From Phycisphaerae bacterium (lineage in GTDB: Bacteria > Planctomycetota > Phycisphaerae > FEN-1346 > JAACEH01), in assembly GCA_012729015.1 (NCBI GenBank), contig JAAYDY010000072.1, forward strand, positions 8,920 to 72,919: a stretch of DNA of 64,000 nt. The letters run 5' to 3'. The position numbers and the translations under genes were made by a program. Of this stretch, positions 22,107 through 61,488 are shown piece by piece. How positions within the stretch are numbered: the stretch's first letter is position 1; each line of letters begins with the position of its first letter. The notes under the pieces are model-generated. The model was not told where the DNA came from, ran no database searches, and saw only the letters and a program-made list of their open reading frames with translations.

Positions 22107-22243
22107 AACGGCCAGCCAGTCGGGCCACTCGCCCAGGGCACATGTCTGGCTTCACTTGCCCTTGTGTTGCCTGACGTTGAGCGCCTTCCAGAGAAGCAAG
22201 GGATGGGTCCGGATTCGCTCAACCATCTTGGCCTCGGCAGTCA

Positions 22244-23392: not shown

Positions 23393-23459
23393 AGCAGTGC
23401 GGTGGTGGGCGAGATGTCGGCCCCTTGCAGATTGAATATCCGATCTTCAATCTGCAAGA
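23393..23459 (+). repeat. Repeat R2: second copy of the hairpin element
   Basis: Stem ttgcagattga (23425-23435), 11-nt loop, stem tcaatctgcaa (23447-23457). About 80% identical to R1 over about 67 nt, in the same orientation. Confidence 0.8.
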
Positions 23460-23551
23460 CCCACGCACCGGCTAGAGCCCCTCGCGGCACCCAAATGGCC
23501 GCCGCGTGACTAATCCTTGACACTTGCTTGGATTAGTCTACCATTTGTAAC

Positions 23552-24471: not shown

Positions 24472-24532
24472 GGCGTGGCGAGGTCAAATGGAGCGTCTCT
24501 CGGATAGCACTGCCATAGCCGCCTCCGTAGGA

Positions 24533-26074: not shown

Positions 26075-26077
26075 CGC

Positions 26078-29397: not shown

Positions 29398-29438
29398 AGA
29401 CAGCCCTCATCTTGCACACCACTGGGATTCGCCCGTGA

Positions 29439-47516: not shown

Positions 47517-50144
47517 TTACAGCCGCGGGTCGACCGGCTCGCTTTCCATCGCCAGAACGCCGAAGACGCACTCGTGAACGCGGCGCAGGGGCTCGTGGCG
47601 GACGAAGCGCTCCAAGGCCTCGATGCCCAGGGCGAACTCTCGCAGGGCCAGCGAACGCTTGGTGTGCAGTCCGCGCGACCGCAGCCGCTCCAGATTCTCC
47701 GGTGTGGTGTATTCCGGCCCATAGATGATCCGCAGGTACTCGCGTCCGCGGCACTTCACTGCCGGCTGGGCCAGGCCCCGCTTGCCCCGAGTGATGAAGG
47801 CCATCGGCTTCACGACCATCCCCTCGCCGCCCCGGCCGGTCAGCTCCAGCCACCAGTCGGCGCCGGCGGCCTGACTGGTCTCGTTGGTCACGTTAACGAC
47901 TTTGTAGGGGGTAGCCAGAAACAGCCGCGTGTCGTGGCGGCAGACCTCGGCCAGCGTGTCCATGTGCCAAACGTGATCGCGGTCGACATGCACCGCGCCC
48001 TCGGTGGCCATCAGGTGGAACGGCGCCAGTTTCAGGTCATCGAGCGACCGGACCGGCCAGCAGTATTGCCGATAGGCGGCCACGTACTTCTCAATGGCCC
48101 GCTCGCGCTCACTGTAGCGGCTGAGCAGCCGCTCCACTTCCTCCAAGTCCGCTATGCCCGGTCCGGCCCGCTCCGCGGTTGCCTGGAGTGCCGCCACAGC
48201 CTCCGGCAATGCCGCCCGGCCTGCCGCGCCCACGGCGGCATACTGCGTTCGCACCAGTTCCTGGGCCTTGGCGGACCACGGCATCAACTCGCAATCGAGG
48301 CAGGCCCACGTGGTCTCGAACTTCGCCCAGAAGTCCGCCGCGTCCATCGCGCCGCGCACGCGGTCCAGGAGGGCGGCCTCCAACTCGGGATCGTCGAAAA
48401 ACCGCCGCCCGGTGCGCGTGTAAACAATACCTGCCTCGCCGTCGGTGACGCCGAAGCGCTTCTGTGCTGCCTCGGCATCACGGCAGACAATGACCACGGC
48501 CCGCGAACCCATGTGCTTCTCTTCGCAGATGACCTGCGGCGTGCCGACCGAGCGATAGTAGGCGAAGGCTTCGGCCGGATGCTCCAGAAAGCCGTCCGCG
48601 TGGCTCGTCTCGCTGGGCGACATCGTCGGCGGCAGGTACACGAGCCACTTCGGATTCGCGGCGAAGCGGCTCATCACCTCCAGCGCCGCTGTGGCATTCT
48701 CCTCGCGCACGGTGACCGCGCCGCGCAGCCGCGTGGCGATGATCCGCTTACCGAGCACGTCCTCGGCGTCCAGAAGGTCGTCCTGCGTCTGTTGGGCCGA
48801 CAGGGCCGGTGCCTCGTGCCCCTCGGGCAGGAACGGCCTCACGGCCTCGCAGTACGTCTGCCCCGCCGGCACCGAGACGAACTCCTTCTCCGGGTAGCGC
48901 AGGGCCGTCAGGCTCCCGCCGAAGACGCAGCCGGTGTCGATGTTGACCGTGCGGTTGAGCCATTCGGGTTCCGGCACCGGCGTGTGGCCGTAGACGACGA
49001 TGGCCGGCCCGCGATACTCCGCCGCCCAGTTGTAGCGGACCGGCAGGCCGAACTCGTCTGTCTCGCCGGTCGTCTCGCCATAGAGAGCGAACCCGCGGAC
49101 CTTGCCGGAGGCGCGACCCTGCATCTCCTGCCGCATGCCGGCGTGGGCCACGACCAGCTTCCCGTCGTCGAGCACGTAGTGGCTGACCAGGCTGTCGAGG
49201 AACTCGCGGGCCTGTTCGACGAACCGCTCTCGTGTTTCGTCCGGCAGGGCCTCGACCTGGGCCAGCGATTCGGCCAGGCCGTGCGTGATCTGCACGTCCT
49301 TGCCGCCGAGCTTGCGCATCAGTTTCATATCGTGGTTGCCCGGCACGCAGAGGGCGGCGCCGGCAGCGACCATGTTCCGCACGAGCCGCAACGTCTCGAC
49401 GACGCGCGGCCCGCGGTCCACGAGGTCGCCGAGGAATGCGGCCTTGCGGCCGCCCGGATGACGGTAGAGCCGCCGACCCCACACGGCATCGTCTTGTGGC
49501 GAGTCAGGGGAGGCCGGCAGTTCCGCGGCCTCGTAACCGAGCTGAGCCAGCAGCGCTTCGAGCTCATCGCAGCAGCCGTGCACATCGCCGATGATGTCGA
49601 ACGGCCCGTGCTCGTCGCGTTTGTCGTTCCAGAGCGGCGTCCGGGTCAGTGTGGCCGCCTCCACCTCGTCGGGCGACTTGAGGATGAACACGTGCCGGAA
49701 GCCCTCGGGCCCCAAACCGCGAAGCGAACGCCGCAGCTGCGACCGCTGACCGCGGATAACGTGCGGCCCGAAGTTGCGGTCCGACCGCTCACGGTTCCGC
49801 TCTTGGCAGACCTTCTCCGGCAGATCGAAAACGATGGCCACCGGCAGTACGTGGAACTCTCGCGCCAAGGCCACCAGGGGCTTCCGCGCTTCCGGCTGCA
49901 CGTTCGTCGCGTCGACAACCGTCAGGCGCCCCAGGGCCAGCCGCTCCCGGGCAATGCTGTGCAGCAGGCGAAACGCCTCGTTCGTCACCGCCTGATCGTT
50001 CTCGTCGTCCGAGACCATCGCCCGGCAAGCATCGCTGGAGAGTACCTCCGTGGGCAGGAAGTGCTTCCGCGCGAACGTGCTCTTGCCCGACCCTGACGGG
50101 CCGATGAGGACAACCAACGAGAGCTTTGGAAGTTCCATCTGCAT
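47517..50144 (-). CDS. pnkp: Bacterial polynucleotide kinase-phosphatase-ligase (RNA repair)
   Basis: ORF 47517..50204, trimmed to MQMELPKLSLVVLIGPSGSGKSTFARKHF (kinase P-loop). Phosphoesterase motifs are GDVHGC, GDLVDRGP and GNHD. The ligase lysine motif is ICEEKHMGSRAVV. Confidence 0.9.
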   Translation of the reverse strand: MQMELPKLSLVVLIGPSGSGKSTFARKHFLPTEVLSSDACRAMVSDDENDQAVTNEAFRLLHSIARERLALGRLTVVDATNVQPEARKPLVALAREFHVLPVAIVFDLPEKVCQERNRERSDRNFGPHVIRGQRSQLRRSLRGLGPEGFRHVFILKSPDEVEAATLTRTPLWNDKRDEHGPFDIIGDVHGCCDELEALLAQLGYEAAELPASPDSPQDDAVWGRRLYRHPGGRKAAFLGDLVDRGPRVVETLRLVRNMVAAGAALCVPGNHDMKLMRKLGGKDVQITHGLAESLAQVEALPDETRERFVEQAREFLDSLVSHYVLDDGKLVVAHAGMRQEMQGRASGKVRGFALYGETTGETDEFGLPVRYNWAAEYRGPAIVVYGHTPVPEPEWLNRTVNIDTGCVFGGSLTALRYPEKEFVSVPAGQTYCEAVRPFLPEGHEAPALSAQQTQDDLLDAEDVLGKRIIATRLRGAVTVREENATAALEVMSRFAANPKWLVYLPPTMSPSETSHADGFLEHPAEAFAYYRSVGTPQVICEEKHMGSRAVVIVCRDAEAAQKRFGVTDGEAGIVYTRTGRRFFDDPELEAALLDRVRGAMDAADFWAKFETTWACLDCELMPWSAKAQELVRTQYAAVGAAGRAALPEAVAALQATAERAGPGIADLEEVERLLSRYSERERAIEKYVAAYRQYCWPVRSLDDLKLAPFHLMATEGAVHVDRDHVWHMDTLAEVCRHDTRLFLATPYKVVNVTNETSQAAGADWWLELTGRGGEGMVVKPMAFITRGKRGLAQPAVKCRGREYLRIIYGPEYTTPENLERLRSRGLHTKRSLALREFALGIEALERFVRHEPLRRVHECVFGVLAMESEPVDPRL

Positions 50145-50152
50145 TTCGTTTC

Positions 50153-50740
50153 TCACGTAGCCGTGCGGCTGGTCTTCTTGGGTGCAATGTCCCTGTGGCA
50201 GCACTCCAACAGATACTCGGCGTTGCCTCCGTCATCATGCCAGGCATCCGTCTTGTCGATGTTCCGATAGCCTCGTTTACTTTCATCTCGCACAAGCACG
50301 TTGCCGATGCCGGGCGTTGTTGCCTCAACGAAGGGCGCTGTCTGGAGCAGAATTCGTTCTATCGTCCACGAGTAGATCAGCGGCGGCATGCCCGGCAAAG
50401 CGTGCAGGCGTTCAAAATAGAAGAAGGGATCAATACCAAGGCCAATCCTTCCCGTCACCCAGTCCCCGGCGGCCAGTCCTTCCAGCGGCGATGATTCTCG
50501 ATAGGCCAGCAGGCCAAAGTCGAGCACCCACACGTCCTTCTGGCACAGAACAATGCGTGCCACCACATCATAGTAGCAGTCCGTTACCCAGGTGCAACGC
50601 GGCTGCGACTGCTCGGTGAGTTCCAGCGTTTTTGCCCAGAATTCGAGAGCCACCTCGCACTCGTCGCCCTTGGCGAAGTCGCCGTAGTTGCCGTCCTGAA
50701 CGATCCATGACGCAAGGTTGAGCTTCCAAGGGTCACTCAT
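50153..50740 (-). CDS. Hypothetical 195-aa protein immediately upstream of pnkp
   Basis: This ORF overlaps the preceding gene by 8 nt and ends 8 nt before the pnkp start. No motif recognised. Confidence 0.5.
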   Translation of the reverse strand: MSDPWKLNLASWIVQDGNYGDFAKGDECEVALEFWAKTLELTEQSQPRCTWVTDCYYDVVARIVLCQKDVWVLDFGLLAYRESSPLEGLAAGDWVTGRIGLGIDPFFYFERLHALPGMPPLIYSWTIERILLQTAPFVEATTPGIGNVLVRDESKRGYRNIDKTDAWHDDGGNAEYLLECCHRDIAPKKTSRTAT

Positions 50741-51506
50741 ACGTGTGCCTCCTGATTCGCAGCAACAGGTCGTTCATCGCTCCCCGAGCCGACGGCTGCT
50801 CCGGCAGGTGGCTTTCCTGACCGGCGCGTTCCAACTCCGCCGTCAGCCGCTCGTACTCTCGCTCGTAAAACTCCAAGTCCGCGGCGGCCAGGCAGCCACG
50901 CTCGCCGCCCTCGACCTTGCGGGCAACCAGGTCGGCGATCTGCGGCAGGCGGAACGTCTCGTTCAGCCGCAGCAGGTTCGCCTCGACCTCGCCGCTCTGC
51001 ATCAGGTGGATGCCGGTCAGCAGCACGCGGTAGACGTAGAGAAGCGGCTTGACGCGGGGCGGCGCGTCCTTCCGGAACAGGTTCCACTGCGTCCGGGCGA
51101 AGCCGAGGTAATGGTGCACGTGGTGCCGCGTGATGCAACCGCGGCCGAGGGCCTTGAGTTCCTCGTGCTCCGGCGTCGTGTGGACCACCAGTGGCGAATA
51201 GAGTTGCTCCAGCACGTAGCCGTTCTTCTTCAGCATCAGCCGCATGAACTTCCGCACGTCGTGTGTCACGAAGTCCAGCTCGATGTCGCCCGGTGCCGCC
51301 GGCTTGTGCGACACCTCGACCGTCTCCTGCGGGGGATCGAGGCCCAGAAACGCCTCTGCCGGCAGCACGTGCGCCCCGCGCAGATCATAATCCGAATCCG
51401 CCGACGGAAACCCATACAGGTGCGCCCCGCTGACCGTGACGAAGAGCAGCGGGTGCGACTGCTCGCTGGCAACAGCAGATAGACGGGCGTTGGGAATATC
51501 GGTCAT
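50733..51506 (-). CDS. Pol-beta-superfamily nucleotidyltransferase of the RNA-repair-associated (RlaP / Nuc-transf) type, copy 1
   Basis: ORF 50733..51584, trimmed to MTDIPNARL... (its ATG overlaps the upstream stop). VSGAHLYGFPSADSDYDLRGAHV is a G[SA]xxxG...DxD-type NTase motif. Paralogous to 51987..52910. Confidence 0.65.
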   Translation of the reverse strand: MTDIPNARLSAVASEQSHPLLFVTVSGAHLYGFPSADSDYDLRGAHVLPAEAFLGLDPPQETVEVSHKPAAPGDIELDFVTHDVRKFMRLMLKKNGYVLEQLYSPLVVHTTPEHEELKALGRGCITRHHVHHYLGFARTQWNLFRKDAPPRVKPLLYVYRVLLTGIHLMQSGEVEANLLRLNETFRLPQIADLVARKVEGGERGCLAAADLEFYEREYERLTAELERAGQESHLPEQPSARGAMNDLLLRIRRHTYE

Positions 51507-51976
51507 CTTGGCTCTTCCTCTCGCCCAATGGCAAAACCGCAGCATCGACAGGTCTTGCGATACTCGGGACACAAGACACCGCACTGGGGGCAGCGTCGCT
51601 CGGTGACACCCTCATACGCCTTCTCCCAGCGTTCGCGGTCAACGCGTTCCTGCTCTTCTTTTCTGGCCCTTGTCGCCCTGGCCGCCTCCGCCATTTCCTC
51701 TGGCGTGGCCGTAGCCACCAAGTGGCTCCAGACCGTTCTAAGGATGACACTTGATGTCCCGTCTGCGTCAGAAGCACCGCATGCCTCCCGCAACGGACTT
51801 GTCTCGTCCCATAGGCCCAACTCGCTTCTGATGGCCATTCCTAATGAGAAGTGAAGCCCGATGAGATCTTCTTCCGCCATCCCGCGAACCAGCGCAATGT
51901 TCGAAGCATCCTGCGCCCATTTCCACGAGAGCACCTCGCGAACAGCTTCTTCGATGGTCCTCGGCTTTCCCCGCAT
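51503..51976 (-). CDS. Hypothetical protein with C-terminal zinc ribbon (157 aa)
   Basis: ORF ending ...RRCPQCGVLCPEYRKTCRCCGFAIG. Coupled (ATGA) to the downstream nucleotidyltransferase gene. Confidence 0.5.
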   Translation of the reverse strand: MRGKPRTIEEAVREVLSWKWAQDASNIALVRGMAEEDLIGLHFSLGMAIRSELGLWDETSPLREACGASDADGTSSVILRTVWSHLVATATPEEMAEAARATRARKEEQERVDRERWEKAYEGVTERRCPQCGVLCPEYRKTCRCCGFAIGREEEPR

Positions 51977-51986
51977 AGGAACCCCC

Positions 51987-52910
51987 TCAACGTGCCATAC
52001 TCCGCCGCGCCCTCACCAGGAACGCATTGGCCGCCTCGTAGTCCGGGCGGTCGGGCAAGGCGGTCGTGCGGAACGCCTCGTCGAATTCCTTGTGCAGCGA
52101 CAGCCGCCACTCGTTGACCTCCGACCATGGCGTGCGGCCGTCACGGATGGCGATCAGGCGGTCCTTGTGCTCGGTCACCTCGACCGGCACCGCGCCGGTC
52201 CGCAGCACGCCGATCCCCGACAGGAGCAGCCGCACCAGGTGCATGGCGTGCTTCCACTTGATGCGGCCCTGGTTCCGCAGGTCGCGCTCCAGCTTCTTGA
52301 ACTGGCTCATCACGTAGGCGTTGTACGTCTGGTAGACAAGCTTCGACAAAAACGCCCCGCGCATGTCCAGCAGTTCCTGCCCGAGCGGCGTCACATGCTC
52401 CACCAGCGGCGTATGCAGCACCTCCAGAATGTTTGGATTGGCCTTGAGCGCCAGCACCAAGAACTTCTGGAGCTCCCAGTAGCACTCGTCGGCGTCCTGG
52501 TCTTCAATCTGCTCCGGCACGCCATACAGCGACCAGTGCAGCTCCGCCGGCGGCAGGTAGACCCCGCGGCGGTCCACGTCCGATTCGTCCGTCGCCAGCC
52601 CGTATGCTCGCGAGCCGATCACGCAGCGATAGATCACGTATTGCCGCAAGTCGCACTCGGCCAGCCGGTCGCGTGACCGACCCGGGTCAAGGTACTGTTT
52701 CAGCACCTCGAACTCCCCGCGCCGCAGCGACACCTCTTCGCCGCCCGGAAACCGCACGCGATAGCTGTGCTCCGGATCGGCCGGCGCGCGGACGATCACC
52801 CCCATGGCCCCGGCCGCGCGCGGCCCCTTCCTCGATGCGCTCTCGCCCCGCGTCACCACGGCCGTGCCGACGGGCAGGATCGCCGGGAGATTGTCTCGTT
52901 CGCTGGTCAT
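51987..52910 (-). CDS. Pol-beta-superfamily nucleotidyltransferase (RlaP / Nuc-transf type), copy 2, with about 90-aa N-terminal extension
   Basis: VIGSRAYGLATDESDVDRRGVYL plus a downstream helical region that aligns with copy 1 (KANPNILEVLHTPLV versus KKNGYVLEQLYSPLV). Confidence 0.65.
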   Translation of the reverse strand: MTSERDNLPAILPVGTAVVTRGESASRKGPRAAGAMGVIVRAPADPEHSYRVRFPGGEEVSLRRGEFEVLKQYLDPGRSRDRLAECDLRQYVIYRCVIGSRAYGLATDESDVDRRGVYLPPAELHWSLYGVPEQIEDQDADECYWELQKFLVLALKANPNILEVLHTPLVEHVTPLGQELLDMRGAFLSKLVYQTYNAYVMSQFKKLERDLRNQGRIKWKHAMHLVRLLLSGIGVLRTGAVPVEVTEHKDRLIAIRDGRTPWSEVNEWRLSLHKEFDEAFRTTALPDRPDYEAANAFLVRARRSMAR

Positions 52911-53671
52911 GTGTTCAGAGGGACCTCATCCCAATCACGCTCGTAACCGCAAACCCAGTTCAAACCCCAGAGTCTTTCCTGGGCGATACTGGTCGCCCGA
53001 CGATATTCCTGCGGCGACAAGCCCGCATAGGGCTTGCCGAATGCCGGGAAGTCATTGTCGATTGCGATGAACCAGCCGTTTGCCTCACCGGTTCTGGCCG
53101 CCGACACGACGTATTCTGTGTACTTCTCCGGCGGAGTTGGCTTGGTGTACTTGTTTCGGTCGGCCTGTATTTGCGTCGTTCGTGACCTCCAGAGCCAGAA
53201 CTCCGAAATCTCGCGAGCCTCGTCGACCTCATCCTCCGACCTGTAGGCGGCAGTCTTGAGGAAGTTCGCCGTCGGCTCTCCTGTCTGCGGAATGACGTTC
53301 ATAATATCGAGCGGCCGGAATTCTTTGTCGTAGGGCGGCATCATGCCCAGTAGCCCCAGCGACCACGCGATGACACCGGCCGACTCAACACGCCAAGAGC
53401 CATTCACCCGCTCACGCTCAGTCCACGACCCCACTGGCCGGCCCATAGGGGGGCGTTCTTGGGCAGAGAACCGCGGCATGATTGGCTCGCGCTCCAGCCA
53501 GGCCATCAAGTCCGCTGCCTTCGTGCGTGCCTCAGCTTTCTCGGCCTCGGTTCCAGCGCTGGCCATTTCCCCTTCGAAGTAGGCTCGGGCGCCGATGCAC
53601 ATCAGGCAAAGCAGCCTTCCAGCAGCATCTCCCGGCGACGGTGGCTCGGGCTTCCAGTCTTGCTCGTTCAT
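52907..53671 (-). CDS. Hypothetical protein, DUF4272-like
   Basis: ORF 52907..53827, trimmed to MNEQDWK... (its ATG overlaps the hen1 stop). SWRVESAGVIAWSLGLLGMMPPYD resembles DUF4272. Its stop overlaps the next ATG. Confidence 0.45.
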   Translation of the reverse strand: MNEQDWKPEPPSPGDAAGRLLCLMCIGARAYFEGEMASAGTEAEKAEARTKAADLMAWLEREPIMPRFSAQERPPMGRPVGSWTERERVNGSWRVESAGVIAWSLGLLGMMPPYDKEFRPLDIMNVIPQTGEPTANFLKTAAYRSEDEVDEAREISEFWLWRSRTTQIQADRNKYTKPTPPEKYTEYVVSAARTGEANGWFIAIDNDFPAFGKPYAGLSPQEYRRATSIAQERLWGLNWVCGYERDWDEVPLNT

Positions 53672-55149
53672 GTGCCATCTCCACATCGCTGAACAGCCGT
53701 GAACACCGCCATCTGCGTCGGCGGGCCGAGGGCTGGGTCCTCGGGGCCGACGGGCAGGAAGCGGACAGTATAGCCGAAACGCTCGGTCACGGCTTCGGCC
53801 CAGGTGCGGAACTCCGCCCGCGTCCACTCGAAGCGATGGTCCTTGTGCCTCAGCGGAGGCGAGACGATAACGGTGTCGGCCGCTGCACGTTCACCCTTAG
53901 TCTCCGCGGGCTTCGCGTCGCCCGCCAGATTCGCCCACAAGACGTTGTACTCTCGGTTCGGCGTCGTGAGGACAATCGTCCCCGGCCGGGCGCACTCGAA
54001 GAGCACGCGCTCGAAGGCCGCCAGGCGCGGCGGATCGAGATGCTCGATCACCTCGACCACGGCTGCGGCGTCGAAGCCTTCCAGCCGCCGGTCGCGGTAC
54101 ATGAGCGATCCGTGCAGCAGCCGCAGGCGGTCCTTCTGATGCGGCGGCAGGCGGTCGAGGCGCAGCCGATCGGCGGCGATCTCCAGCGAGCGGATCGAAA
54201 CGTCGAGGCCGATGATCTCGTCAAACTGTTTGTCCTTCATCAACTCGCGCACGAGGTTGCCCTCGCCGCAACCGAGGTCGAGCACGCGCCGGGCCCCGCT
54301 CGCCCGCAGCGCCGCCAGCACCGTGCCCAGACGTTCTTCGTTGAGGCTGATGCGAGCCTCGGCCGAGTCCTCCTCGCCGGTGGACGCCTCGTCGTCCAGC
54401 GCTGCGACTTCAGGCTCGTCCTCCTGGGCCAGTTGGGCCAGGGCTTGCCGGGCCAGGCTCGGCGCGTGCTTCAGGTAGCGGAAGGTGATGGCCTCCCGCT
54501 CCGGATGCGAGGCCAGCCAGCCTTCGCCCTTGGCCAGCAGGTTCTCCATCTCCGCCTGGCCGACGTAGTAATGCTTGCGATGGTCGAAGACGGGCACGAG
54601 CACGTAGAGGTGCGTGAGCAACTCCTTGAGTGTGGTTGTCTTCGACAGCTCCACCGTGAAGTACGGGCTGTCGCCCCAGTCAGCGAACGTCTCGTCCAGC
54701 GGGTGCGGCGCGACGGTAAGGGCGTAGCCGAGCGGCTCGAAGACGCGCCGCAGGAACGCCTCGCCTCCGCGGCACGGCAGCACGGCGATGCGGGCCACCA
54801 GCGGCAGCGGCGTGTCGACCAATTCGGGCCGCTCTTTGCTCCGACCCTGGAGGGCCGAGCCGAATACCTGGGCGATGGCCACGCTGAGGAACGAGGACGC
54901 GACGAACGGCCGATCGTTCACGTACTGGTCGAGCAGCCGCTCGGAGAACCGCGATGGCCCGCGCACGATGCCGACCGGGTCGACGTCCAGGAGCAGCGCC
55001 GCCGTACAGTTCTGAGTCGTCGCCTCGGGATAGAACACGTGCGCCCGCCCGAAACTCAGATCGAACGTCTGGCACCGCGCCGGGTTCTTGTGCAACAAAT
55101 AGCCCACGTCGATGGCGGGATGATGCGTTGTTGAGATGGTCAAAAGCAT
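53668..55149 (-). CDS. hen1: Bacterial Hen1 3'-terminal RNA ribose 2'-O-methyltransferase
   Basis: 493 aa. MLLTISTTHHPAIDVGYLLHKNPARCQTF is the characteristic bacterial Hen1 N-terminus, and RVLDLGCGEGNL is the SAM-binding motif. Confidence 0.9.
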   Translation of the reverse strand: MLLTISTTHHPAIDVGYLLHKNPARCQTFDLSFGRAHVFYPEATTQNCTAALLLDVDPVGIVRGPSRFSERLLDQYVNDRPFVASSFLSVAIAQVFGSALQGRSKERPELVDTPLPLVARIAVLPCRGGEAFLRRVFEPLGYALTVAPHPLDETFADWGDSPYFTVELSKTTTLKELLTHLYVLVPVFDHRKHYYVGQAEMENLLAKGEGWLASHPEREAITFRYLKHAPSLARQALAQLAQEDEPEVAALDDEASTGEEDSAEARISLNEERLGTVLAALRASGARRVLDLGCGEGNLVRELMKDKQFDEIIGLDVSIRSLEIAADRLRLDRLPPHQKDRLRLLHGSLMYRDRRLEGFDAAAVVEVIEHLDPPRLAAFERVLFECARPGTIVLTTPNREYNVLWANLAGDAKPAETKGERAAADTVIVSPPLRHKDHRFEWTRAEFRTWAEAVTERFGYTVRFLPVGPEDPALGPPTQMAVFTAVQRCGDGT

Positions 55150-55153
55150 GGAA

Positions 55154-55444
55154 TTACCCTTCGCTCACACTGATCACGGCATCGTCCTGCAGCTTCGCCT
55201 TCTGGAGCGCCTTCTTTATGATGCTCTTGGCCTCGGCGAGATGACGATTGCGGCTCAAGTAGACGTAGACAACATCGCTCGGCGGATGATCGATATCGCT
55301 CAACTTCCCCAACCCGCCGTTGACAATTGGTCCCCAGATATCCTCCGCAAACCAGAATACACGGAAGTAGTAGTCATTCGAACGACCGGGAGGAAATCTG
55401 ATCTCGATTGCCTCGGCCACAACGTGCCTCCTGACCGCAGCCAA
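55154..55444 (-). CDS. Hypothetical small protein (96 aa) between rtcB and hen1
   Basis: ORF with lower GC and protein-like composition. It has 12-nt and 4-nt gaps to its neighbours. Confidence 0.45.
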   Translation of the reverse strand: MAAVRRHVVAEAIEIRFPPGRSNDYYFRVFWFAEDIWGPIVNGGLGKLSDIDHPPSDVVYVYLSRNRHLAEAKSIIKKALQKAKLQDDAVISVSEG

Positions 55445-55456
55445 CCTCGGGAACCA

Positions 55457-56869
55457 CTAGTCCTCCGGCCGTTCGCCTGCGGGGGCCATCTTCACGAGCC
55501 GCGGATCGAAGCGGGCCACCGGCTCGACCAGGTCGCGCTGAGCGGCCATCACCTCGTCGATGTCCTTGTACGCCATGGGCACCTCGTCGAGGCCGGCCGA
55601 GAGCAGGTCCACGTTGTGGTCGGCCAGGAACTTCTTCGCCTGGTGCCAGGTGAACGTCTCCTTGGCCTTCGTGCGGCTCATCTTCCGTCCGGCGCCGTGG
55701 CTGGCCGAGTTCAGCGACGTCGGCTCGCCGCGACCGCGGACCACGTAGCCGGCTGTGCCCATCGAGCCGGGAATGATGCCGAGCGTGCCCGCGGCGGCCG
55801 GCGTGGCGCCCTTGCGATGTACGATGACCTGGCGCCCGCCGTGCGTCTCGCGCCAGGCGAAGTTGTGGTGGTTCTCGATGTCCAGCAGCACGTCGACGCC
55901 CAAGTGCCGGGCGATGTGCCGATGGATCAACTGGTGGTTGGCGGCGGCATAGCGGCCCATCAACTCCATGGCCGCCCAGTACTCCTGGCCCTCGGCGCTA
56001 TCGAGGTTGAGCCAGGCCAAGTGGCTGAGTTCGCGCGGCAACTCGCCGTGGCGGCCCTGGGCCAGCTTGCTGTAGTGCTCGGCGACGCCGGCTCCCGTGC
56101 CGCGGCTTCCGCTGTGCGAAAGCAGAGCCAGGTAGACGCCGGCCCTCAGGCCCAGATCGTCGCGCTCAAGCGTCAGCGTGCCATACTCCACGAAGTGGTT
56201 GCCGCTGCCGCTCGTGCCGAGCTGGCTCCAGGCCTTGTCCTTCAAGGCGATGGTGACCGGCGAGATCGTCCAGTCGTCGTCCATGACCTCATGCTGGCGG
56301 CGCTTGCGGAACGTCGCCCCGACGCCGAAGCGCGTCTCGTCCTCCAGGGCACGGACCAGCCGCCCTCGCTGACCGTCGATTGCGTCGACCGGCAGGTCGA
56401 GCACCGTCAGTTTCATGCGGCAGGCGATGTCGACGCCGACGGCGAACGGGATGACGGCATTGTCCGTGGCCAGCACACCGCCGATGGGCAAGCCGTAGCC
56501 CTGGTGGGCGTCGGGCATGAGCGCACCGGCAACCGACACCGGCAGCGAGCAGGCGTTGCGAAGCTGCCCGACCGCAGACGGCTCCAGGTCGCGGCCCCAC
56601 TGCCGCCACGGGGCCGGCTCGGTGCGCGGCTGGTAGGTAGCCTGCAATTCTGCCGAGGCGATCAGTGCCGTGGCCATCGCGCCGAAATGCTCATCCGCCT
56701 GGTGCGCAGCCGGGTCGGCGGCCACGGCGCGCACGGCCGCACGGATGGCTTCTTTATCCAGTCCCGACGCCGCAGCCGCCGCGATGCACGCGACCGAGGC
56801 CTTCATCGCCTCGCCCTTGGGCACGCCCAGGTTCCTCAACTCTCGCGGCTTCATTCCAACTCTCCTCAC
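55457..56869 (-). CDS. rtcB: RNA-splicing ligase RtcB (3'-phosphate/5'-hydroxyl RNA ligase)
   Basis: MPDAHQGYGLPIGGVLA, GSGNHF, HSGSRGTG, ENHHNFAW, IIPGSMGT and SASHGAGR. Its start overlaps the rtcA stop (ATGA); 56854 is an alternative start. Confidence 0.95.
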   Translation of the reverse strand: MRRVGMKPRELRNLGVPKGEAMKASVACIAAAAASGLDKEAIRAAVRAVAADPAAHQADEHFGAMATALIASAELQATYQPRTEPAPWRQWGRDLEPSAVGQLRNACSLPVSVAGALMPDAHQGYGLPIGGVLATDNAVIPFAVGVDIACRMKLTVLDLPVDAIDGQRGRLVRALEDETRFGVGATFRKRRQHEVMDDDWTISPVTIALKDKAWSQLGTSGSGNHFVEYGTLTLERDDLGLRAGVYLALLSHSGSRGTGAGVAEHYSKLAQGRHGELPRELSHLAWLNLDSAEGQEYWAAMELMGRYAAANHQLIHRHIARHLGVDVLLDIENHHNFAWRETHGGRQVIVHRKGATPAAAGTLGIIPGSMGTAGYVVRGRGEPTSLNSASHGAGRKMSRTKAKETFTWHQAKKFLADHNVDLLSAGLDEVPMAYKDIDEVMAAQRDLVEPVARFDPRLVKMAPAGERPED

Positions 56870-57891
56870 ATCTTCTTCGCCTCAACCTCCCACACACCCC
56901 TTGCCTCGTCAACGCAGGCTGTAATGATCTCGGATGGGAGGAACGCCTTGATCACCTCGATGTTCGTCGTCGTATGCCTGCTCGGCGCCACCGTGCGGAA
57001 CCGTCCGCCGGCGGTGGCCATCAGCACCAGCAGTTGATCGGCCAGATGCTCGCCAACGGGCACCCCCGCGGCCAGGTAGCGCCGCACTTCTTTGGCAACC
57101 TTCTCGGCCACGGCCTCGGCTCGCACGCCGTGCTGGCCGAAGCCGGTGAAGACCTCCGTCACGTTCTCGCTCTCGACCTCGATGAGCACGACGTTGCCTG
57201 GCCCGACCGGGTCCTTGACGAAGACGATGTCCGGCGGATCGACCACGAGGCCGAGCCTCTTGCCGACCACCTTCAGCTCGCGCAGGGCGATGTCCATCGG
57301 CAGTTGTGACACGATGGCCGTGGCCCGTTTACGGTGGATCTCGCCGCGTTCGACCAGTTCTAGCGGCGCGAGCTGGGCGACCGGGTCGATGGTCACGCGG
57401 AACCGCCCGCCGCCCGCCGGGTAGAAGCCGTAGCGATCCAGTTCAACGCGGACCTTCGGCCCCATGCGGCCCACCAGCGGCAGGAACGCCCGCTGGAGGA
57501 AATCGAACGGCGGCGCCCACGGATTGTGTGTGCCGCCCTCCAGGAGCAGCGTCGACCGCTCCTTGGCCACGAGCAGTGCCGGCAGCACGGTCTGAAGCAC
57601 CAGCGTGGCGCTGCCGGCCGTGCCGACGGCGAACTCGTAGTGCCCGCCGGAGACCATGCACGGCGTGAACGTCAGTTCCTGCGAGCCGATCGCATCGCCA
57701 ACAACCTCAGCCCCGCAGATGCCCTTAGCGGCCCGCACGGCCGTCAGGTGCTGGCGCAGAAGGCCCGGTCGGTCGCGTCCGGCGCGAATCTTCTCGATGC
57801 GGAATGGCTGCCCGGTGAGCATGGACAGAGCCAGGCTTGTCCGCAGGACCTGTCCGCCGCCTTCACCCATGCTGCCGTCGATGGTAATCAT
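56866..57891 (-). CDS. rtcA: RNA 3'-terminal phosphate cyclase
   Basis: ORF 56866..57960, trimmed to MITIDGSMGEGGGQVLRTSLALSMLTGQPFRIEKIRAGRDRPGLLRQHL, the canonical RtcA N-terminus. Confidence 0.9.
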   Translation of the reverse strand: MITIDGSMGEGGGQVLRTSLALSMLTGQPFRIEKIRAGRDRPGLLRQHLTAVRAAKGICGAEVVGDAIGSQELTFTPCMVSGGHYEFAVGTAGSATLVLQTVLPALLVAKERSTLLLEGGTHNPWAPPFDFLQRAFLPLVGRMGPKVRVELDRYGFYPAGGGRFRVTIDPVAQLAPLELVERGEIHRKRATAIVSQLPMDIALRELKVVGKRLGLVVDPPDIVFVKDPVGPGNVVLIEVESENVTEVFTGFGQHGVRAEAVAEKVAKEVRRYLAAGVPVGEHLADQLLVLMATAGGRFRTVAPSRHTTTNIEVIKAFLPSEIITACVDEARGVWEVEAKKM

Positions 57892-57969
57892 TGCTGCACC
57901 TGAGACACGTTGTTCATAACACTCTGAGGGGGCCGGGCCCGATTGCCCGGCCCCCATCATAGCAACTAT

Positions 57970-59070: not shown

Positions 59071-59492
59071 GCTCGTCTCCCTTCTGCTTTCTTGCTGCTC
59101 TCACTTGCGATCTTCATTGACGTTCTTCATCATCTCCGCCGGCGATAGGGTCGTCCGGAGGCGGGCTGGTCGTCCGAGCCACGCAGCCTGCTTGCGGAGC
59201 GTGCTTGAGGGGCCTCGCGGGTCCGTCCTTCCGGCGGGTTCGTGCCCGCGGCCATTGCCACCGAGACTGCTGGTCGCACTGCCGCCGCACGTTGCCTGCC
59301 GGTCGGCACGAACTTCTGTGGCGCCGGTATCCGCACGCTACAGGGCATCGGACCGCGCTGCTGTCGGATGGGCGACGTGATCGGCAGCGATCCTCGTCTT
59401 CCCCCCTCCGACAGCCGGTCGGCCGCCTGCCCGCCTCCTTCGGACCAGTCTCGGGTGTCGCATCGCTGCGACGGAGCAGGTTCACAGCCTGC

Positions 59493-59564
59493 GGTTCGGT
59501 GCGGGATTCGAACCCGCAACAGCCAGATTCTGCGCCTGGTGCTCTACCATTGAGCTACCCGATC
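59493..59564 (-). tRNA. tRNA-like gene with a non-canonical anticodon loop and imperfect acceptor stem (pseudo-tRNA or regulatory tRNA mimic)
   Basis: The reverse strand folds as GAUCGGG-UA-GCUC-AAUGGUA-GAGC-A-CCAGG-CGCAGAA-UCUGG-CUGUU-GCGGG-UUCGAAU-CCCGC-ACCGAAC-C. D and T arms are perfect. Position 33 is G instead of U, the anticodon would be CAG (Leu) on a short-variable-arm body, and there are two acceptor mismatches (A2-A71, G7-A66). No CCA is encoded. Confidence 0.6.
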
Positions 59565-59740
59565 GTCTGACACCACCTTCGTCAGAACCCGTGCGCGGAA
59601 CGCGTAGGGCTGATCGCGTGGTCGCTGCCACAAGGCACACCACGAACGAAGCCCGACGTGCCGCCGGCCCGGCGGAATCAGTCTTCACTTGTCATGGAAA
59701 TCCGCCCAGGACATCGGGCGGCCTTCACGCCTGATTCTAC

Positions 59741-59757
59741 AAGCAGATGCCGTGCCA
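59741..59757 (-). promoter_or_regulatory. Sigma54 (-24/-12) promoter for the rtc/RNA-repair operon
   Basis: The reverse strand reads TGGCACGGCATCTGCTT against the consensus TGGCACG-N4-TTGCW, with a single mismatch at the first T of TTGC. It lies in the rtcR-rtc divergent region, as expected for an RtcR-dependent promoter. Confidence 0.65.
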
Positions 59758-59880
59758 CAAGTCCGAGGCAGGCAAAGAAAAACCCTAACCCGTTGCCATT
59801 CCGCAGGTTCCAACTCGCATGGCCAAGGTGGCTGTTTTGAGGCTTGCTATCTCAAATGATAAGTGGTTATCCTAGCGGCT

Positions 59881-61488
59881 ATGAATCCCAAGAAGACGGT
59901 CATCTTCGGTCTGCTGGGCACGGTGCTTGACGGGGCTGGCAAGCGCGAGGACCGCTGGCAGAAGTGGCGGCCCACGGTCTCACTCTTTCAGCACGAGGAG
60001 TTGCTCGTACACCGCTTCGAGTTCCTGCACGACGAGATCCGTGACGGCTTGGCAGGCCGCGTGGCCGCGGACATTGCCACTGTCTCCCCCGAAACGAAGA
60101 TCTGCCAGCACAAGGTGCAGTTCCGCGACCCCTGGGACTTCGAAGAGGTCTACGGCACCCTCCACGACTTCATGCACGCCTATCGCTTCGATCCGGATCG
60201 GGAGGATTACCTGATCCACATCACCACCGGCACCCATGTGGCCCAGATCTGCATGTTCCTGCTGGCCGAGTCGCGGGCCTTCCCTGGCAAGCTCATCCAG
60301 ACTGCCCCGCCACACCGCAGTCGGAGGCCGAATACCGGCAGCTATACAATCATCGACCTCGACCTGTCGAAGTACGACCGCCTCGCCTCGCGCTTCCGCC
60401 AGAAAATGCGCGACGACGTGTCCTACCTCAAGTCCGGCATCGAGACCCGCAACGCCGAGTTCAACCGCCTGATCGAGCGGATCGAGCGCGTCGCCCTGCA
60501 CTCCACGGCGCCGCTGCTGCTGACCGGACCCACCGGCGCCGGCAAATCGCTCCTGGCCCGCCGCATCTACGAACTCAAGCACCAGAGGCGTCAGGTGGCC
60601 GGACCGTTCGTCGAGGTCAACTGCGCCACGCTGCGCGGCGACGCGGCCATGAGCGCCCTGTTCGGTCACGTCAAGGGCGCCTTCACCGGCGCCGTCAGTG
60701 ACCGGCCGGGGTTGCTCCGCGCTGCCGATGGCGGGATGCTCTTTCTCGATGAGGTCGGCGAACTCGGCACTGACGAGCAGACGATGCTCCTGCGGGCCGT
60801 GGAAGAGAAGAAGTTCCTACCCCTCGGCAGCGACCGCGAGGTGGCCAGCTCGTTTCAACTGGTCTGCGGCACCAATCGCAATCTCCAGGCCGACGTCGCC
60901 CAGGGGCGGTTCAGGGAGGATCTGTTGGCCCGGATCAACCTCTGGACGTTCCGCCTGCCGGGCCTGCGGGACCGCACGGAGGACATTCCGCCAAACCTCC
61001 AGTATGAGCTTGACCAGTTCGCCCGCTCGACGGGCGCCCACGTGACCTTCAACAAGGAGGCCGCGAGCCGCTTCCTGGCCTTCGCCGCCTCGAGCGAGGC
61101 CGCCTGGACCGCCAACTTCCGCGACCTGAATGGGGCGGTGGTCCGCATGGCCACGCTGGCCCCCGGCGGACGGATCACGGTCGGGGAGGTCGAGGAGGAG
61201 ATCGCCCGGCTGAAGGCCGCTTGGCGGCGCGAGGCGATGACCGGCTCCGATGAAGACGTCCTGCGCAGGATGCTGTCCGACGAGCAGTTCGACGAGTTGG
61301 ACCGTTTCGACCTCGTCCAACTGGCCGAGGTCATCCGCACTTGCCGTCACTCGCGATCCCTGTCCGACGCCGGCCGCGCCCTCTTCGCCGCCAGCCGCCG
61401 CCGGAAGAGCAGCGCCAACGACGCCGACCGCCTCCGCAAGTATCTGGCCCGGTTCGGCATCGACTGGCACGACCTGTTCAGGGAATGA
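59881..61488 (+). CDS. rtcR: Sigma54-dependent transcriptional activator RtcR (CARF-like N-domain + AAA+ + HTH)
   Basis: ORF 59863..61488, trimmed to MNPKKTVIFGLLGTVLDGAG...WRPTVSL (RtcR-type N-terminus). AAA+ motifs are LLLTGPTGAGKSLLARRIY, GMLFLDEVGEL, the GAFTGA loop (HVKGAFTGA) and FREDLLARINLWTFRLPGLRDR. Confidence 0.9.
   Translation: MNPKKTVIFGLLGTVLDGAGKREDRWQKWRPTVSLFQHEELLVHRFEFLHDEIRDGLAGRVAADIATVSPETKICQHKVQFRDPWDFEEVYGTLHDFMHAYRFDPDREDYLIHITTGTHVAQICMFLLAESRAFPGKLIQTAPPHRSRRPNTGSYTIIDLDLSKYDRLASRFRQKMRDDVSYLKSGIETRNAEFNRLIERIERVALHSTAPLLLTGPTGAGKSLLARRIYELKHQRRQVAGPFVEVNCATLRGDAAMSALFGHVKGAFTGAVSDRPGLLRAADGGMLFLDEVGELGTDEQTMLLRAVEEKKFLPLGSDREVASSFQLVCGTNRNLQADVAQGRFREDLLARINLWTFRLPGLRDRTEDIPPNLQYELDQFARSTGAHVTFNKEAASRFLAFAASSEAAWTANFRDLNGAVVRMATLAPGGRITVGEVEEEIARLKAAWRREAMTGSDEDVLRRMLSDEQFDELDRFDLVQLAEVIRTCRHSRSLSDAGRALFAASRRRKSSANDADRLRKYLARFGIDWHDLFRE

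Follow-up and report, generated by a model that had tools for sequence, protein, structure and literature searches.

What kind of RNA is a tRNA-like element that lies at the head of a bacterial RNA-repair operon, and what might it do there? RNA-repair operons are widespread in bacteria, but little is known of what they act on or which cofactors they use; among RNA cofactors, the Ro60-Y RNA pair alone is known to have been studied. Pnkp-Hen1, one of the repair enzymes concerned, acts on broken tRNAs. The DNA analysed here (the window, a stretch of 64,000 nt from a Phycisphaerae bacterium) carries such an operon, opposite a divergent rtcR gene. A first-pass annotation had described a non-canonical tRNA-like RNA in the operon leader, downstream of the RtcR/sigma54 promoter, and our results support an RNA gene at this place that does not decode. 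Here, we show what the element is, how it is conserved and folded, and with which gene it is associated, and we propose a role for it and for the larger RNA of which it may be a part.

Results

Organization of the locus

The features of the locus are collected in Table 1. The element lies 179 nt from the -12 GC of the sigma54 promoter, from which transcription is expected to start near 59730, and 423 nt upstream of the start of the first CDS, the SPFH gene, at 59070; the distances of about 180 and 420 nt given in the first-pass annotation were accurate. An equivalent TGGCAC-N5-(T)TGC site precedes the element in nine of ten compared loci. No intrinsic terminator or separate promoter for the element was predicted in the window. 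The single weak sigma70-like site predicted there lies upstream of the sigma54 site, and the idea that the element has an intrinsic terminator or a sigma70 promoter of its own was rejected. The SPFH protein matches PDB stomatins over residues 175-351 (E = 1.5e-23), and a PDB search found no solved relative of its N-terminal ~135-170 residues. The reported lack of a Ro/TROVE gene was borne out: tblastn with the Ro protein from a comparison locus (L013) found no homologue in the 64-kb window, and a Pfam scan found no TROVE domain among ten proteins (nine operon proteins and RtcR).

Table 1. Positions of the promoter, RNA features and genes, numbered from the first letter of the window
Feature	Position	Strand	Basis
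rtcR, divergent sigma54 activator with RtcR/CARF-type N-terminal domain	59863..61488	+	Pfam RtcR E = 1.8e-82, Sigma54_activat E = 1.3e-49
sigma54 (-24/-12) promoter TGGCACGGCATCTGCT	59742..59757	-	10/12 specified consensus positions matched
Predicted 5' domain, a variable hairpin enclosed by three nested helices (CCG/CGG, GCGGCAC/GCGUUCCGC, GUCG/CUAC)	59589..59667	-	RNAalifold
Conserved linker GGGUUCUGACGAAGG, then short local hairpin (UCUGAC...GUCAGA), directly 5' of the cloverleaf	59565..59588	-	Upstream-region alignment
tRNA-like domain (b7a-tRNA type), L-shape-competent cloverleaf	59493..59564	-	ARAGORN, Rfam tRNA, model R1, family covariation
Anticodon-stem-loop-like hairpin GCAGG-CUGUGAA-CCUGC, abutting the cloverleaf 3' end	59476..59492	-	Hairpin scan of linkers
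Predicted 3' domain, ~296 nt, multi-branched, closed by GUC..GGAGGCGGGC with GCCCGCCUCC..GAC	59150..59445	-	RNAalifold, nhmmer
SPFH/Band-7 (stomatin-like 'slipin'), 366 aa	57970..59070	-	Pfam Band_7, E = 2e-31, residues 140-311
Downstream repair genes, whole block	47517..57960	-	Pfam assignments and ORF coordinates
rtcA	56866-57960	-	Pfam
rtcB	55457-56869	-	Pfam
hen1	53668-55149	-	Pfam
DUF4272	52907-53827	-	Pfam
rlaP (first)	51987-52910	-	Pfam
rlaP (second)	50733-51584	-	Pfam
195-aa ORF without Pfam assignment	50153-50740	-	ORF list
pnkp	47517-50204	-	Pfam

A cloverleaf that departs from tRNA rules

The only tRNA-type gene that ARAGORN calls in the whole window is the element itself (59493-59564, minus strand), as tRNA-Leu with anticodon cag. 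The Rfam tRNA model RF00005 covers the same nucleotides end to end (46.4 bits, gathering score 29, E = 1e-6), marking two non-canonical acceptor pairs in the alignment, and covariance model R1, described below, scores it at 77.7 bits. Segment by segment the 72-nt sequence reads GAUCGGG UA GCUC AAUGGUA GAGC A CCAGG CGCAGAA UCUGG CUGUU GCGGG UUCGAAU CCCGC ACCGAAC C, with the arms in the normal order (acceptor, D, anticodon, T). Position 33 in the anticodon loop CGCAGAA is G, and the variable loop of 5 nt (CUGUU) gives the element a class I body; bacterial leucine tRNAs belong to class II and have a long variable arm. Five of the seven acceptor pairs are formed, the mismatches being A2.A71 and G7.A66, which leaves four contiguous pairs at 3:70-6:67 and none counted from 7:66. 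The 3' end is followed directly by GCAGG and not by CCA. ARAGORN, Rfam and the sequence thus confirm a 72-nt tRNA-like element with G33, CAG on a class I body, two acceptor mismatches and no CCA, as first described. The cloverleaf is the minimum-free-energy fold of the 72 nt, and its single-sequence folding energy is not significant alone (z = -1.16); the structural support for the element comes from covariation rather than from folding energy.

The element accompanies SPFH genes

Model R1 was built from nine such elements and run on 80 rtcR loci and 80 SPFH loci. The rtcR loci gave 100 matches, 99 of them on the operon strand (the sole off-strand match scored 13 bits, E 0.35), and the SPFH loci gave 145, every one on the strand of the gene. 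The first operon product in the 80 rtcR loci is Ro60 with YrlA, or rtcB directly, or an SPFH protein of the window type, and the element stands between rtcR and the SPFH gene in each of the nine rtcR loci with an SPFH protein of 43-64% full-length identity. Among the loci found through the SPFH protein, the element is upstream of the gene in 67 of 80, and most of the remaining 13 have too little upstream sequence to tell. The SPFH gene, treated in the first-pass annotation as simply a member of the operon, is the defining partner of the element.

Many related loci carry 6-17 ordinary-looking tRNA genes in an array on the strand of the element, which forms the final unit of the array; the window has no array. 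A genuine 85-nt tRNA-Leu(cag) with CCA is present in one comparison locus (L047). In enterobacterial slipin loci, model R1 finds a T-arm hairpin only (9.1 bits), Rfam gives no match, and nhmmer gives a weak match to the 5' domain described below (E = 0.0057) and none to the 3' domain, so these loci carry a reduced relative at best. This reduced relative (slipin and nucleotidyltransferase genes, with a T-arm-like hairpin in the leader) occurs in about 30% of complete E. coli genomes. A search of plasmid DNA with the 518-nt RNA was uninformative, returning only two 58-nt matches, to the tRNA-like part, on actinobacterial plasmids.

The tRNA core is conserved and the decoding end is not

Conservation in orthologous rtc loci, the absence of which the first-pass annotation had named as evidence against its reading, is strong and accompanied by covariation. 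In the set of 74 orthologues, pairing reaches 99.7% in the D stem, 98.4% in the anticodon stem and 100% in the T stem, and double-sided changes occur at 17 of the 21 cloverleaf pairs. None of 500 shuffles attains any of five measures of cloverleaf structure, and pairing falls from 89% to 30-42% when the 3' partners are slid. Little or no variation is seen at U8, A14, G18, A21, G46, U54, U55, C56 and A58, and there is covariation in the 15-48 Levitt pair (G-C in 31 members and A-U in 21; mutual information 0.742, attained in 0 of 5000 permutations).

The two ends of the molecule behave differently. The anticodon loop is 5, 6 or 7 nt long in 6, 9 and 59 members, respectively, looks canonical in just 32 of the 74, and presents 31 different triplets. 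Acceptor pairs 1:72, 2:71 and 3:70 are formed in 28%, 35% and 55% of members, and all seven pairs in only two. Counted outward from 7:66, 14 of the 74 have 6-7 contiguous acceptor pairs and most keep 3-5; CCA occupies positions 74-76 in 20. Acceptor mismatches, the lack of CCA and a non-canonical anticodon loop (G33 in the window) are therefore traits of the family and not oddities of an individual sequence. Thirty-one 'anticodons' on loops of 5-7 nt, with stems kept by compensation, are the opposite of what is seen in a functional isoacceptor and in a decaying pseudogene. The element does not decode. From the pattern of substitution, selection appears to maintain the tRNA core and elbow (the L-shape) while letting the anticodon loop and the acceptor end drift.

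The cloverleaf as one domain of a larger predicted RNA

The element had been regarded as a free 72-nt unit in a plain leader, a view that has to be revised, as some 450 nt of flanking sequence are conserved and structured. RNAalifold, run on 65 leaders, embeds the cloverleaf in a predicted, possibly new three-domain RNA of ~520 nt (59150-59667), consisting of a 5' domain, the cloverleaf with the anticodon-loop-like hairpin, and a 3' domain of ~300 nt. The whole RNA has 17 helices, of which 13 (65 pairs) lie outside the cloverleaf. These 13 are 85.4% paired against 34-44% when slid, a percentage inflated by scoring the structure on the same alignment that yielded it; this bias weighs less on the double-sided counts and on the slide control. 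The 13 helices have a covariation score of 0.424, compared with 0.116 at most, and 0 of 500 shuffles attain any measure.

Helices 1-3 of the 5' domain are 96%, 91% and 82% paired, with compensatory changes, and an nhmmer profile of this domain matches 69 loci, all of the SPFH type. In the linker directly 5' of the cloverleaf, the block auGGguUCUgAcgaagg is kept across phyla in the upstream-region alignment, and no pairing partner was predicted for it. On the other side of the cloverleaf, a hairpin of at least 4 bp closing a CUGNNAA heptaloop is found in 24 of 79 linkers (24-30 of 79 loci), with fewer than 0.3 expected: mononucleotide shuffles give a mean of 0.04, and the reverse complement and a coding control give 0. 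Its stems covary (GUCGG/CCGAC, CCAGC/GCUGG, ACGGG/CCCGU and others).

The 3' domain contains the near-invariant blocks GCC(N)UG(N)AG, GCGGAUACCG, CUCAAGC, CUCCGC and GUGUGG, and each of its ten helices is 75-99% paired, with many double-sided changes. Its single-sequence minimum-free-energy fold recovers the closing helix (z = -3.71; 0 of 200 shuffles as stable). According to nhmmer, the domain is present in 72 loci, always straight after the cloverleaf. Where rtcB or inserted ORFs intervene before SPFH, the domains of the RNA are still found side by side. Ro-type loci have neither the 5' nor the 3' domain. No Rfam family matched the flanks at gathering score in the window, and at E <= 10 the tRNA model alone matched in 58900-59900. 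No pairing between the three domains was predicted, and they could therefore be separated by processing.

A hidden small ORF between the element and SPFH was considered and rejected, as three-frame translations of this gap from 10 loci share no protein similarity; a conserved nucleotide block without protein similarity favours an RNA over a small ORF. The matches seen among the translations were frame-hopping ones between two close relatives only, and it is the nucleotide block that is conserved.

Discussion

The explanation that we slightly favour overall is that the element is a non-decoding, tRNA-shaped domain of the b7a class, set in an RNA of ~520 nt that partners the SPFH protein. In this proposal, the RtcR/sigma54 promoter would transcribe the RNA as the first product of the SPFH-rtcA-rtcB-hen1-pnkp operon, and the RNA would act as a cofactor or scaffold that assembles with the cytoplasmic stomatin-like SPFH protein of the operon. 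Such an SPFH-RNA particle may be the counterpart of the Ro60-YrlA particle encoded at the same position in other rtcR operons. Its tRNA-shaped surface could recruit, organise or tune RtcB, RtcA, Pnkp-Hen1 and RlaP, or could compete with tRNA-directed nucleases. Binding of the RNA to SPFH, and any effect on repair, is an inference. A more sweeping formulation can be given, to which we would assign an even chance: 'b7a-tRNA' would be one domain of a ~520-nt, 17-helix RNA found across Planctomycetota, Desulfobacterota, Acidobacteriota, Lentisphaerota and others, always leading SPFH-type RNA-repair operons and supplying the RNA component of an SPFH ribonucleoprotein comparable to Ro-Y RNA.

The gene association would fit a cis-acting leader equally well. 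The RNA, in the manner of an attenuator or riboswitch, could sense a trans factor, for instance RNase P, a repair enzyme that binds tRNA or a signal from damaged RNA, and set read-through or translation of the downstream genes accordingly; we think this unlikely, although several observations speak for it. The position of the RNA, after the sigma54 promoter and ahead of the first gene, is constant, with no separate promoter or terminator predicted in the window. Within 14 nt of the long helix that closes the 3' domain (GGAGGCGGAC / GUCCGCCUCC), at least five U follow in 41 of 65 leaders, and a UUUU run follows in 21 of 65, which resembles a terminator. The 3' strand of the helix contains CCUCC, complementary to the SPFH Shine-Dalgarno sequence GGAGG. 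However, the U-tract is missing in the window and in many other loci, and a feature found in only 21-41 of 65 leaders is not universal. Structure and start codon are 17 to 350 nt apart, depending on the locus. In several loci opposite-strand ORFs or rtcB lie between the RNA and SPFH, which speaks against a fixed expression platform that acts on the ribosome-binding site of SPFH. Moreover, 520 nt with 17 helices far exceeds known attenuators.

A somewhat smaller likelihood attaches to the idea that the RNA is a decoy, sentinel or feedback substrate, cut by tRNA-damaging nucleases, which it would either soak up or turn to account by yielding 2',3'-cyclic-phosphate fragments that act on the RtcR CARF domain until RtcB reseals them. 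Pnkp-Hen1, as mentioned at the outset, is an enzyme of broken tRNAs. The hairpin abutting the window cloverleaf does carry an anticodon-loop signature (C32 U33 G34 N N A37 A38), and the operon enzymes RtcB and RlaP act on broken tRNAs (PMC12776372). Yet the cloverleaf's own anticodon loop varies in sequence and length, and with a loop so unconstrained it cannot mimic one defined nuclease target. The RNA is also produced only once RtcR is already active, and hence cannot be the primary sensor or sentinel. Fragments of Salmonella YrlA were not detected under tRNA-cleaving conditions (PMC7790460), and more than half of the loci lack the anticodon-like hairpin. No direct support was found for the role of sentinel, decoy or RtcR ligand suggested in the first-pass annotation; the conserved anticodon-loop-like hairpin leaves a weaker version of the decoy alive.

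Recognition of the cloverleaf by RNase P, RNase Z and the CCA-adding enzyme, as for a tRNA within a polycistronic transcript, can also be imagined. Cleavage would free the 5' domain, a tRNA-sized RNA, and the 3' domain still attached to the mRNA, and the new ends would set the stability of these products. The domains are not predicted to pair with one another, the element closes the tRNA gene arrays of many related loci, and some members have CCA (20/74) or 6-7 contiguous acceptor pairs (14/74). A precedent exists in the YrlA of M. smegmatis, which can be cleaved by RNase P and gain CCA (PMC4201824). That the element is essentially a processing signal is nevertheless improbable: the acceptor stem is mismatched in the window and in most members, most lack CCA, and the flanks are conserved as far as the cloverleaf itself, as the leaders and trailers of tRNAs usually are not. 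Processing would in any case be compatible with an SPFH-partnered RNA and not exclusive of it. Finally, an ordinary or decaying tRNA-Leu(CAG) gene lying beside the operon by chance is scarcely credible and is contradicted by the data. ARAGORN and Rfam both call a tRNA, but the body is of class I, position 33 is G, two acceptor pairs are mismatched and CCA is lacking, and the orthologues at the same position show 31 triplets, loops of 5-7 nt and compensated stems.

With apparently strong selection on the L-shape but none on decoding, a tie to one SPFH protein family and a place in a covarying ~520-nt structure, the b7a RNA is now a concrete target for probing, ribonucleoprotein purification and genetics, and the reduced relative in E. 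coli offers a tractable model for the system. If the large RNA is real, it would be a new class among the few large structured RNAs of bacteria and would support the notion that RNA ligation and repair are quite generally organised by RNAs of tRNA shape.

Comparison with known systems

An elongator tRNA-Leu(CAG) differs from the element in having a long variable arm, a canonical anticodon loop (7 nt, U33, purine 37), a conserved anticodon, a 7-bp acceptor and a CCA end, encoded or added after processing. The eukaryotic vault offers a more distant parallel. It is a large cage of MVP, the shoulder domain of which is SPFH-like, and small structured RNAs are bound to it through the TROVE-domain protein TEP1. 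The vault links SPFH and TROVE, the very modules that alternate in rtcR operons, and differs in being eukaryotic, with no known tRNA-like RNA and no known link to RNA ligation. In the Anabaena L-array, tRNA genes are co-regulated with rtcB under translational or RNA-damage stress, and a role as a sponge against toxin RNases has been suggested (PMC8421152). Many loci related to the window similarly have tRNA genes beside the b7a RNA, but the L-array consists of apparently functional tRNAs with defined anticodons, in contrast to the single non-decoding element of the window.

The comparison with Y RNA made in the first-pass annotation was apt, as the element sits where Ro60 and YrlA sit in other rtcR operons: sigma54 controls transcription, rtcR diverges, and rtcB or rtcA follows downstream. 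Each of the two RNAs is modular, includes a tRNA-like module in which features of the T and D arms are retained, and has a partner gene for a ring- or scaffold-forming protein. The likeness does not extend to a YrlA match or a Ro/TROVE gene: the YrlA model RF02553 gave no match, either in the window at gathering score or in 58900-59900 at E <= 10, while a scan of 20 rtcR loci gave 11 matches in nine of them, and these nine are all of the Ro type. The tRNA-like module of YrlA, furthermore, is a circular permutation: its T arm precedes its D arm, and its two ends make up the stem that Ro binds (PMC4201824). The window element has the normal cloverleaf order.

The closest relative is b7a-tRNA. 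As cited in a 2018 preprint (bioRxiv 10.1101/312249), Burroughs and Aravind predicted it in 2016, together with a Band-7 protein, next to RtcB; the preprint describes it as a predicted, strongly tRNA-like ncRNA, proposed to be functionally redundant with YrlA and at that date not validated. Rfam has no b7a family. Within the literature reached by a full-text search, b7a-tRNA is named only in this preprint and the ~520-nt RNA is not described. Judged from the second-hand description in the preprint, the window element matches the b7a-tRNA class: it is strongly tRNA-like by ARAGORN, by Rfam and in its conserved tertiary core, the next gene downstream is SPFH/Band-7, and rtcA and rtcB follow directly, with rtcR divergent. 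It differs from the tRNA-sized RNA so described in that its cloverleaf is flanked by covarying domains and an anticodon-loop-like hairpin, ~520 nt in all, and its operon adds Hen1, Pnkp, two RlaP and DUF4272. On these sources, the b7a-tRNA class is known from the 2016 prediction, and the surrounding ~520-nt structured RNA is possibly new.

Results

The cloverleaf in the leader of the RNA-repair operon is the only tRNA-type gene that ARAGORN finds in the 64-kb window, where it is typed as tRNA-Leu(cag), and the Rfam tRNA model covers the same 72 nt end to end (46.4 bits against a gathering score of 29), flagging two non-standard acceptor pairs. Its sequence, GAUCGGG-UA-GCUC-AAUGGUA-GAGC-A-CCAGG-CGCAGAA-UCUGG-CUGUU-GCGGG-UUCGAAU-CCCGC-ACCGAAC-C, has G33, a variable loop of 5 nt and the mismatches A2.A71 and G7.A66, and is without CCA. 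These breaks of tRNA rules, with the class I body, had been listed in the first-pass annotation and are present in the window sequence, as are a near-consensus sigma54 promoter about 180 nt upstream and a first CDS about 420 nt downstream (its start, at 59070, lies 423 nt from the element). By Pfam, the minus-strand genes run SPFH/Band-7, RtcA, RtcB, Hen1, DUF4272, RlaP, RlaP, an unassigned ORF and Pnkp, with the RtcR gene divergent. Neither a Ro/TROVE gene (tblastn with a Ro protein) nor a YrlA RNA (Rfam) was found in the window; the first-pass annotation had already noted the absence of Ro/TROVE.

Within the operon, the DUF4272 protein is encoded at 52907-53827 (minus strand), between hen1 and both rlaP genes, and a 195-aa ORF without a Pfam match (50153-50740, minus strand) shares about 50 nt with the start of pnkp. 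Elsewhere, G+C is 0.58-0.62 over about 14 kb (16001-30000) against 0.64-0.69 in the rest of the window; this segment could be horizontally acquired and has no bearing on the element.

Features of the operon leader in window coordinates
Feature	Position	Strand	Remark
Near-consensus sigma54 promoter TGGCACGGCATCTGCT	59757-59742	(-)	179 nt upstream of element
5' domain	59667-59589	(-)	mapped from consensus fold
Cloverleaf	59564-59493	(-)	mapped from consensus fold
Hairpin GCAGG-CUGUGAA-CCUGC	59492-59476	(-)	directly 3' of cloverleaf
3' domain	59445-59150	(-)	mapped from consensus fold

In several of 80 loci collected through RtcR, ARAGORN reports odd tRNAs on the operon strand 250-400 nt upstream of rtcR, typed as Ile, "SeC" or undetermined, or given two- or four-base "anticodons". 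A covariance model (R1) built from nine of them matched 100 times in these loci, 99 times on the operon strand. Queried by tblastn with a Ro protein and the proteins of the window, the rtcR-divergent operons fall into three kinds, which open with Ro60 and then YrlA RNAs (Rfam RF02553), with rtcB, or with this SPFH protein. The element lies between rtcR and SPFH in all nine loci whose SPFH protein shares 43-64% identity with the window's along its entire length. Another 80 loci, collected through the SPFH protein, come mostly from Planctomycetota but include Desulfobacterales, Acidobacteriota, Kuenenia, Trichlorobacter thiogenes and Blastopirellula marina. Here R1 gave 145 matches, all on the gene's strand, and the element lies upstream of the SPFH gene, typically 400-500 nt from the start codon, in 67 of the 80, most of the others having too little upstream sequence. 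Linkage of this conserved, strand-specific, sigma54/RtcR-proximal RNA to a stomatin-like SPFH protein is strict, and the pair replaces Ro60 and YrlA positionally. Over residues 175-351 the protein is similar to ring-forming stomatins; no solved structure is related to its N-terminal ~135-170 residues, and no transmembrane stretch is evident by eye in its sequence.

An alignment of 74 orthologues separates what is conserved from what is not. The D, anticodon and T stems are paired in 99.7%, 98.4% and 100%, double-sided changes occur in 17 of 21 cloverleaf pairs, pairing falls from 89% to 30-42% once the 3' partners are slid, and none of 500 shuffles reaches any of five measures. The tertiary-core bases U8, A14, G18, A21, G46, U54, U55, C56 and A58 are invariant or nearly so, and the Levitt pair 15-48 covaries (G-C 31, A-U 21; mutual information 0.742; 0/5000 permutations). 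The anticodon loop, on the other hand, has 5, 6 or 7 nt in 6, 9 and 59 members; it is canonical (7 nt, U33, purine 37) in only 32, and 31 different triplets fill the anticodon position. Only 28%, 35% and 55% of members form the acceptor pairs 1:72, 2:71 and 3:70, only two form all seven, and CCA follows the cloverleaf in 20. Because this degeneracy of loop and acceptor runs through the 74 orthologues, the "rule breaks" are family traits. On this alignment, selection keeps the L-shaped body and elbow and ignores both ends needed for decoding and charging. A plain tRNA or pseudogene is thus scarcely credible: bacterial tRNA-Leu is class II, as is the genuine 85-nt tRNA-Leu with CCA in one other locus (L047), which excludes a tRNA-Leu, whether ordinary or decaying.

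Conservation across phyla extends to the intergenic sequence that flanks the element on either side, with no conserved reading frame found in it and no Rfam family. Upstream are the blocks CCGGGCCAGCGGCGCGC ... GCGUGUUCCG ... AUGGGUUCUGACGAAGG; downstream come GGCCCGA-GGAGGCGGACG, GAUCGGCC, GCAGCACG, GCC-UGCAG and GCGCGGAUACCGC, then GCUCAAGCG, CUCCGCG, GUGUGAUCGGC and UCCGCCUCC. From 65 leaders RNAalifold predicts 17 helices (three in the 5' domain, four in the cloverleaf, ten in the 3' domain), with the 3' domain closed by GGAGGCGGAC paired with GUCCGCCUCC. Counted on an independent MAFFT alignment, the 13 non-tRNA helices (65 pairs) are 85.4% paired against 34-44% when slid, a figure favored by deriving the structure from the sequences scored; the stronger evidence is compensatory change, with double-sided changes in 59 of 65 pairs. 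Their covariation score is 0.424 against at most 0.116, no shuffle of 500 reaches any measure, and the whole 17-helix structure gives the same result. Folded alone, the window's 3' domain reproduces the consensus closing helix (z = -3.71). By nhmmer, the 5' and 3' domains match in 69 and 72 loci, all of SPFH type and in constant order around the cloverleaf, and in no Ro-type or rtcB-first locus. The cloverleaf thus appears to be one domain of a covarying RNA of ~520 nt, seemingly new and found neither in Rfam nor in the accessible literature.

The three domains stay contiguous even where rtcB or opposite-strand insertions precede SPFH. Two Desulfobacterales loci (L128 988-2498; L140 1153-2483) have a 390-aa RtcB gene between RNA and SPFH, and L094, L096, L099 and L091 have small opposite-strand ORFs there; accordingly, the RNA behaves like an independent unit. 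In the 3' domain, the closing helix (59150-59167 with 59429-59445, and its equivalents in related loci) has a symmetric internal loop of 3x3 nt, CGA opposite NGA, that separates GCC/GGC from GGAGGCGGAC/GUCCGCCUCC, and in lower-GC genomes AUUUUU follows this helix. Several internal loops are nearly invariant, e.g. CGGAUACCG facing CUCAAGCG, which suggests that they may be protein-binding or tertiary-contact sites.

The hairpin next to the cloverleaf bears, in its heptaloop, the anticodon-loop signature C32-U33-G34-N-N-A37-A38. Of 79 loci, 24 have such a CUGNNAA hairpin, with stems that covary, against a mean of 0.04 in shuffles and none in the reverse complement or a coding control.

In many SPFH-type loci the RNA is directly preceded, and SPFH sometimes also followed, by a long same-strand array of tRNA genes that look ordinary, with as many as 17 in 4 kb (L151 106-2160 and 3673-4054; L106 73-2039; L147 30-1909; L100 35-2017; L146 1020-1972; L038 12-446; L088, L082, L105, L114, L138, L142, L144). 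A block Trp(cca)-Thr(tgt)-Arg(ccg)-Arg(tcg)-Arg(gcg)-Cys(gca) recurs, whole or partial, in several Planctomycete loci. There is no array in the window. In a Ro-type Calditrichia MAG (L035 377-825), two tRNA-Phe(gaa)-like genes and two YrlA RNAs (Rfam 75-82 bits) alternate downstream of Ro, tRNA-like first along the operon strand. Sphingomonad rtcR loci, in Ro-type and rtcB-first operons alike, have a tRNA-Pro(tgg)-like gene on the operon strand ~250-330 nt upstream of rtcR (L045 2675-2752; L056 2674-2751; L071 2671-2748; L077 2689-2761), with encoded CCA and an unusual D loop, e.g. AGCCUGCGCA, without evident GG; the window's 5' and 3' domains are absent from these loci.

A small enterobacterial operon encodes a nucleotidyltransferase and a "slipin family protein" that shares 32-36% identity with the window's SPFH across residues 1-329 (L161, Citrobacter freundii NZ_CP151862.1, 2966-6919, divergent from an rtcR gene; L162, E. 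coli CP061233.1, 4472-6925). The 450-530-nt leader of this operon lacks a cloverleaf but contains a sigma54-like site and a single hairpin resembling a T arm, UGGGUUCGAUUCCCA, and matches the 5' domain weakly by nhmmer (E = 0.0057). Of 5426 complete E. coli genomes, 1629 contain the slipin gene and leader at a coverage of at least 80%, and no RNA is annotated at this place.

Discussion

We infer, with moderate confidence, that the SPFH protein assembles with the RNA into a ribonucleoprotein parallel to Ro-Y RNA, which would offer a surface shaped like tRNA to the repair enzymes of the operon, RtcB, RtcA, Pnkp-Hen1 and RlaP, the last of which adds nucleotides to 3' ends of damaged tRNA (PMC12776372), or alternatively to tRNA-directed nucleases. 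A cis-acting attenuator or translational switch is unlikely: 21-41 of the 65 leaders have a U-tract after the closing helix, whose 3' strand contains a CCUCC anti-Shine-Dalgarno sequence, but the window has no U-tract, the spacing from RNA to start codon is very variable and some loci have genes inserted between RNA and SPFH. The decoy, sentinel or feedback ligand of the first-pass annotation, kept open by the CUGNNAA hairpin, is somewhat less likely still, and its mechanism found no support, since the cloverleaf's own anticodon loop is unconstrained and the RNA is produced only once RtcR has fired; YrlA fragments, moreover, were not detected in Salmonella while tRNAs were being cut (PMC7790460). 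That the element is a processing signal for RNase P and RNase Z is improbable as an explanation by itself and compatible with a ribonucleoprotein; in its favor, many loci have the element at the end of a tRNA gene array, and 20 of the 74 members encode CCA.

The broad framing of a real, non-canonical tRNA-like RNA of a repair operon, akin to YrlA, was right. Burroughs and Aravind (2016) reportedly describe, in their abstract, SPFH/Band-7 modules with "a novel tRNA-like molecule" as cognate RNA. The tRNA arrays of SPFH-type loci resemble the Anabaena array co-regulated with rtcB (PMC8421152). A literature search on the name b7a-tRNA (band-7-associated tRNA) returned bioRxiv 10.1101/312249 alone; its discussion, which cites Burroughs and Aravind (2016) for a Band-7 protein with a predicted b7a-tRNA beside RtcB and agrees with that abstract, notes that this RNA seems functionally redundant with YrlA and that experimental validation of its existence was then lacking. 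The window element has every feature of b7a-tRNA described there and lacks those that define YrlA or tRNA-Leu. It is a member of this already predicted class rather than a new kind of element, and the class now gains quantitative evidence of selection for tRNA shape only, a tight link to one SPFH family and, for its cloverleaf, a place within what appears to be a much larger covarying RNA.
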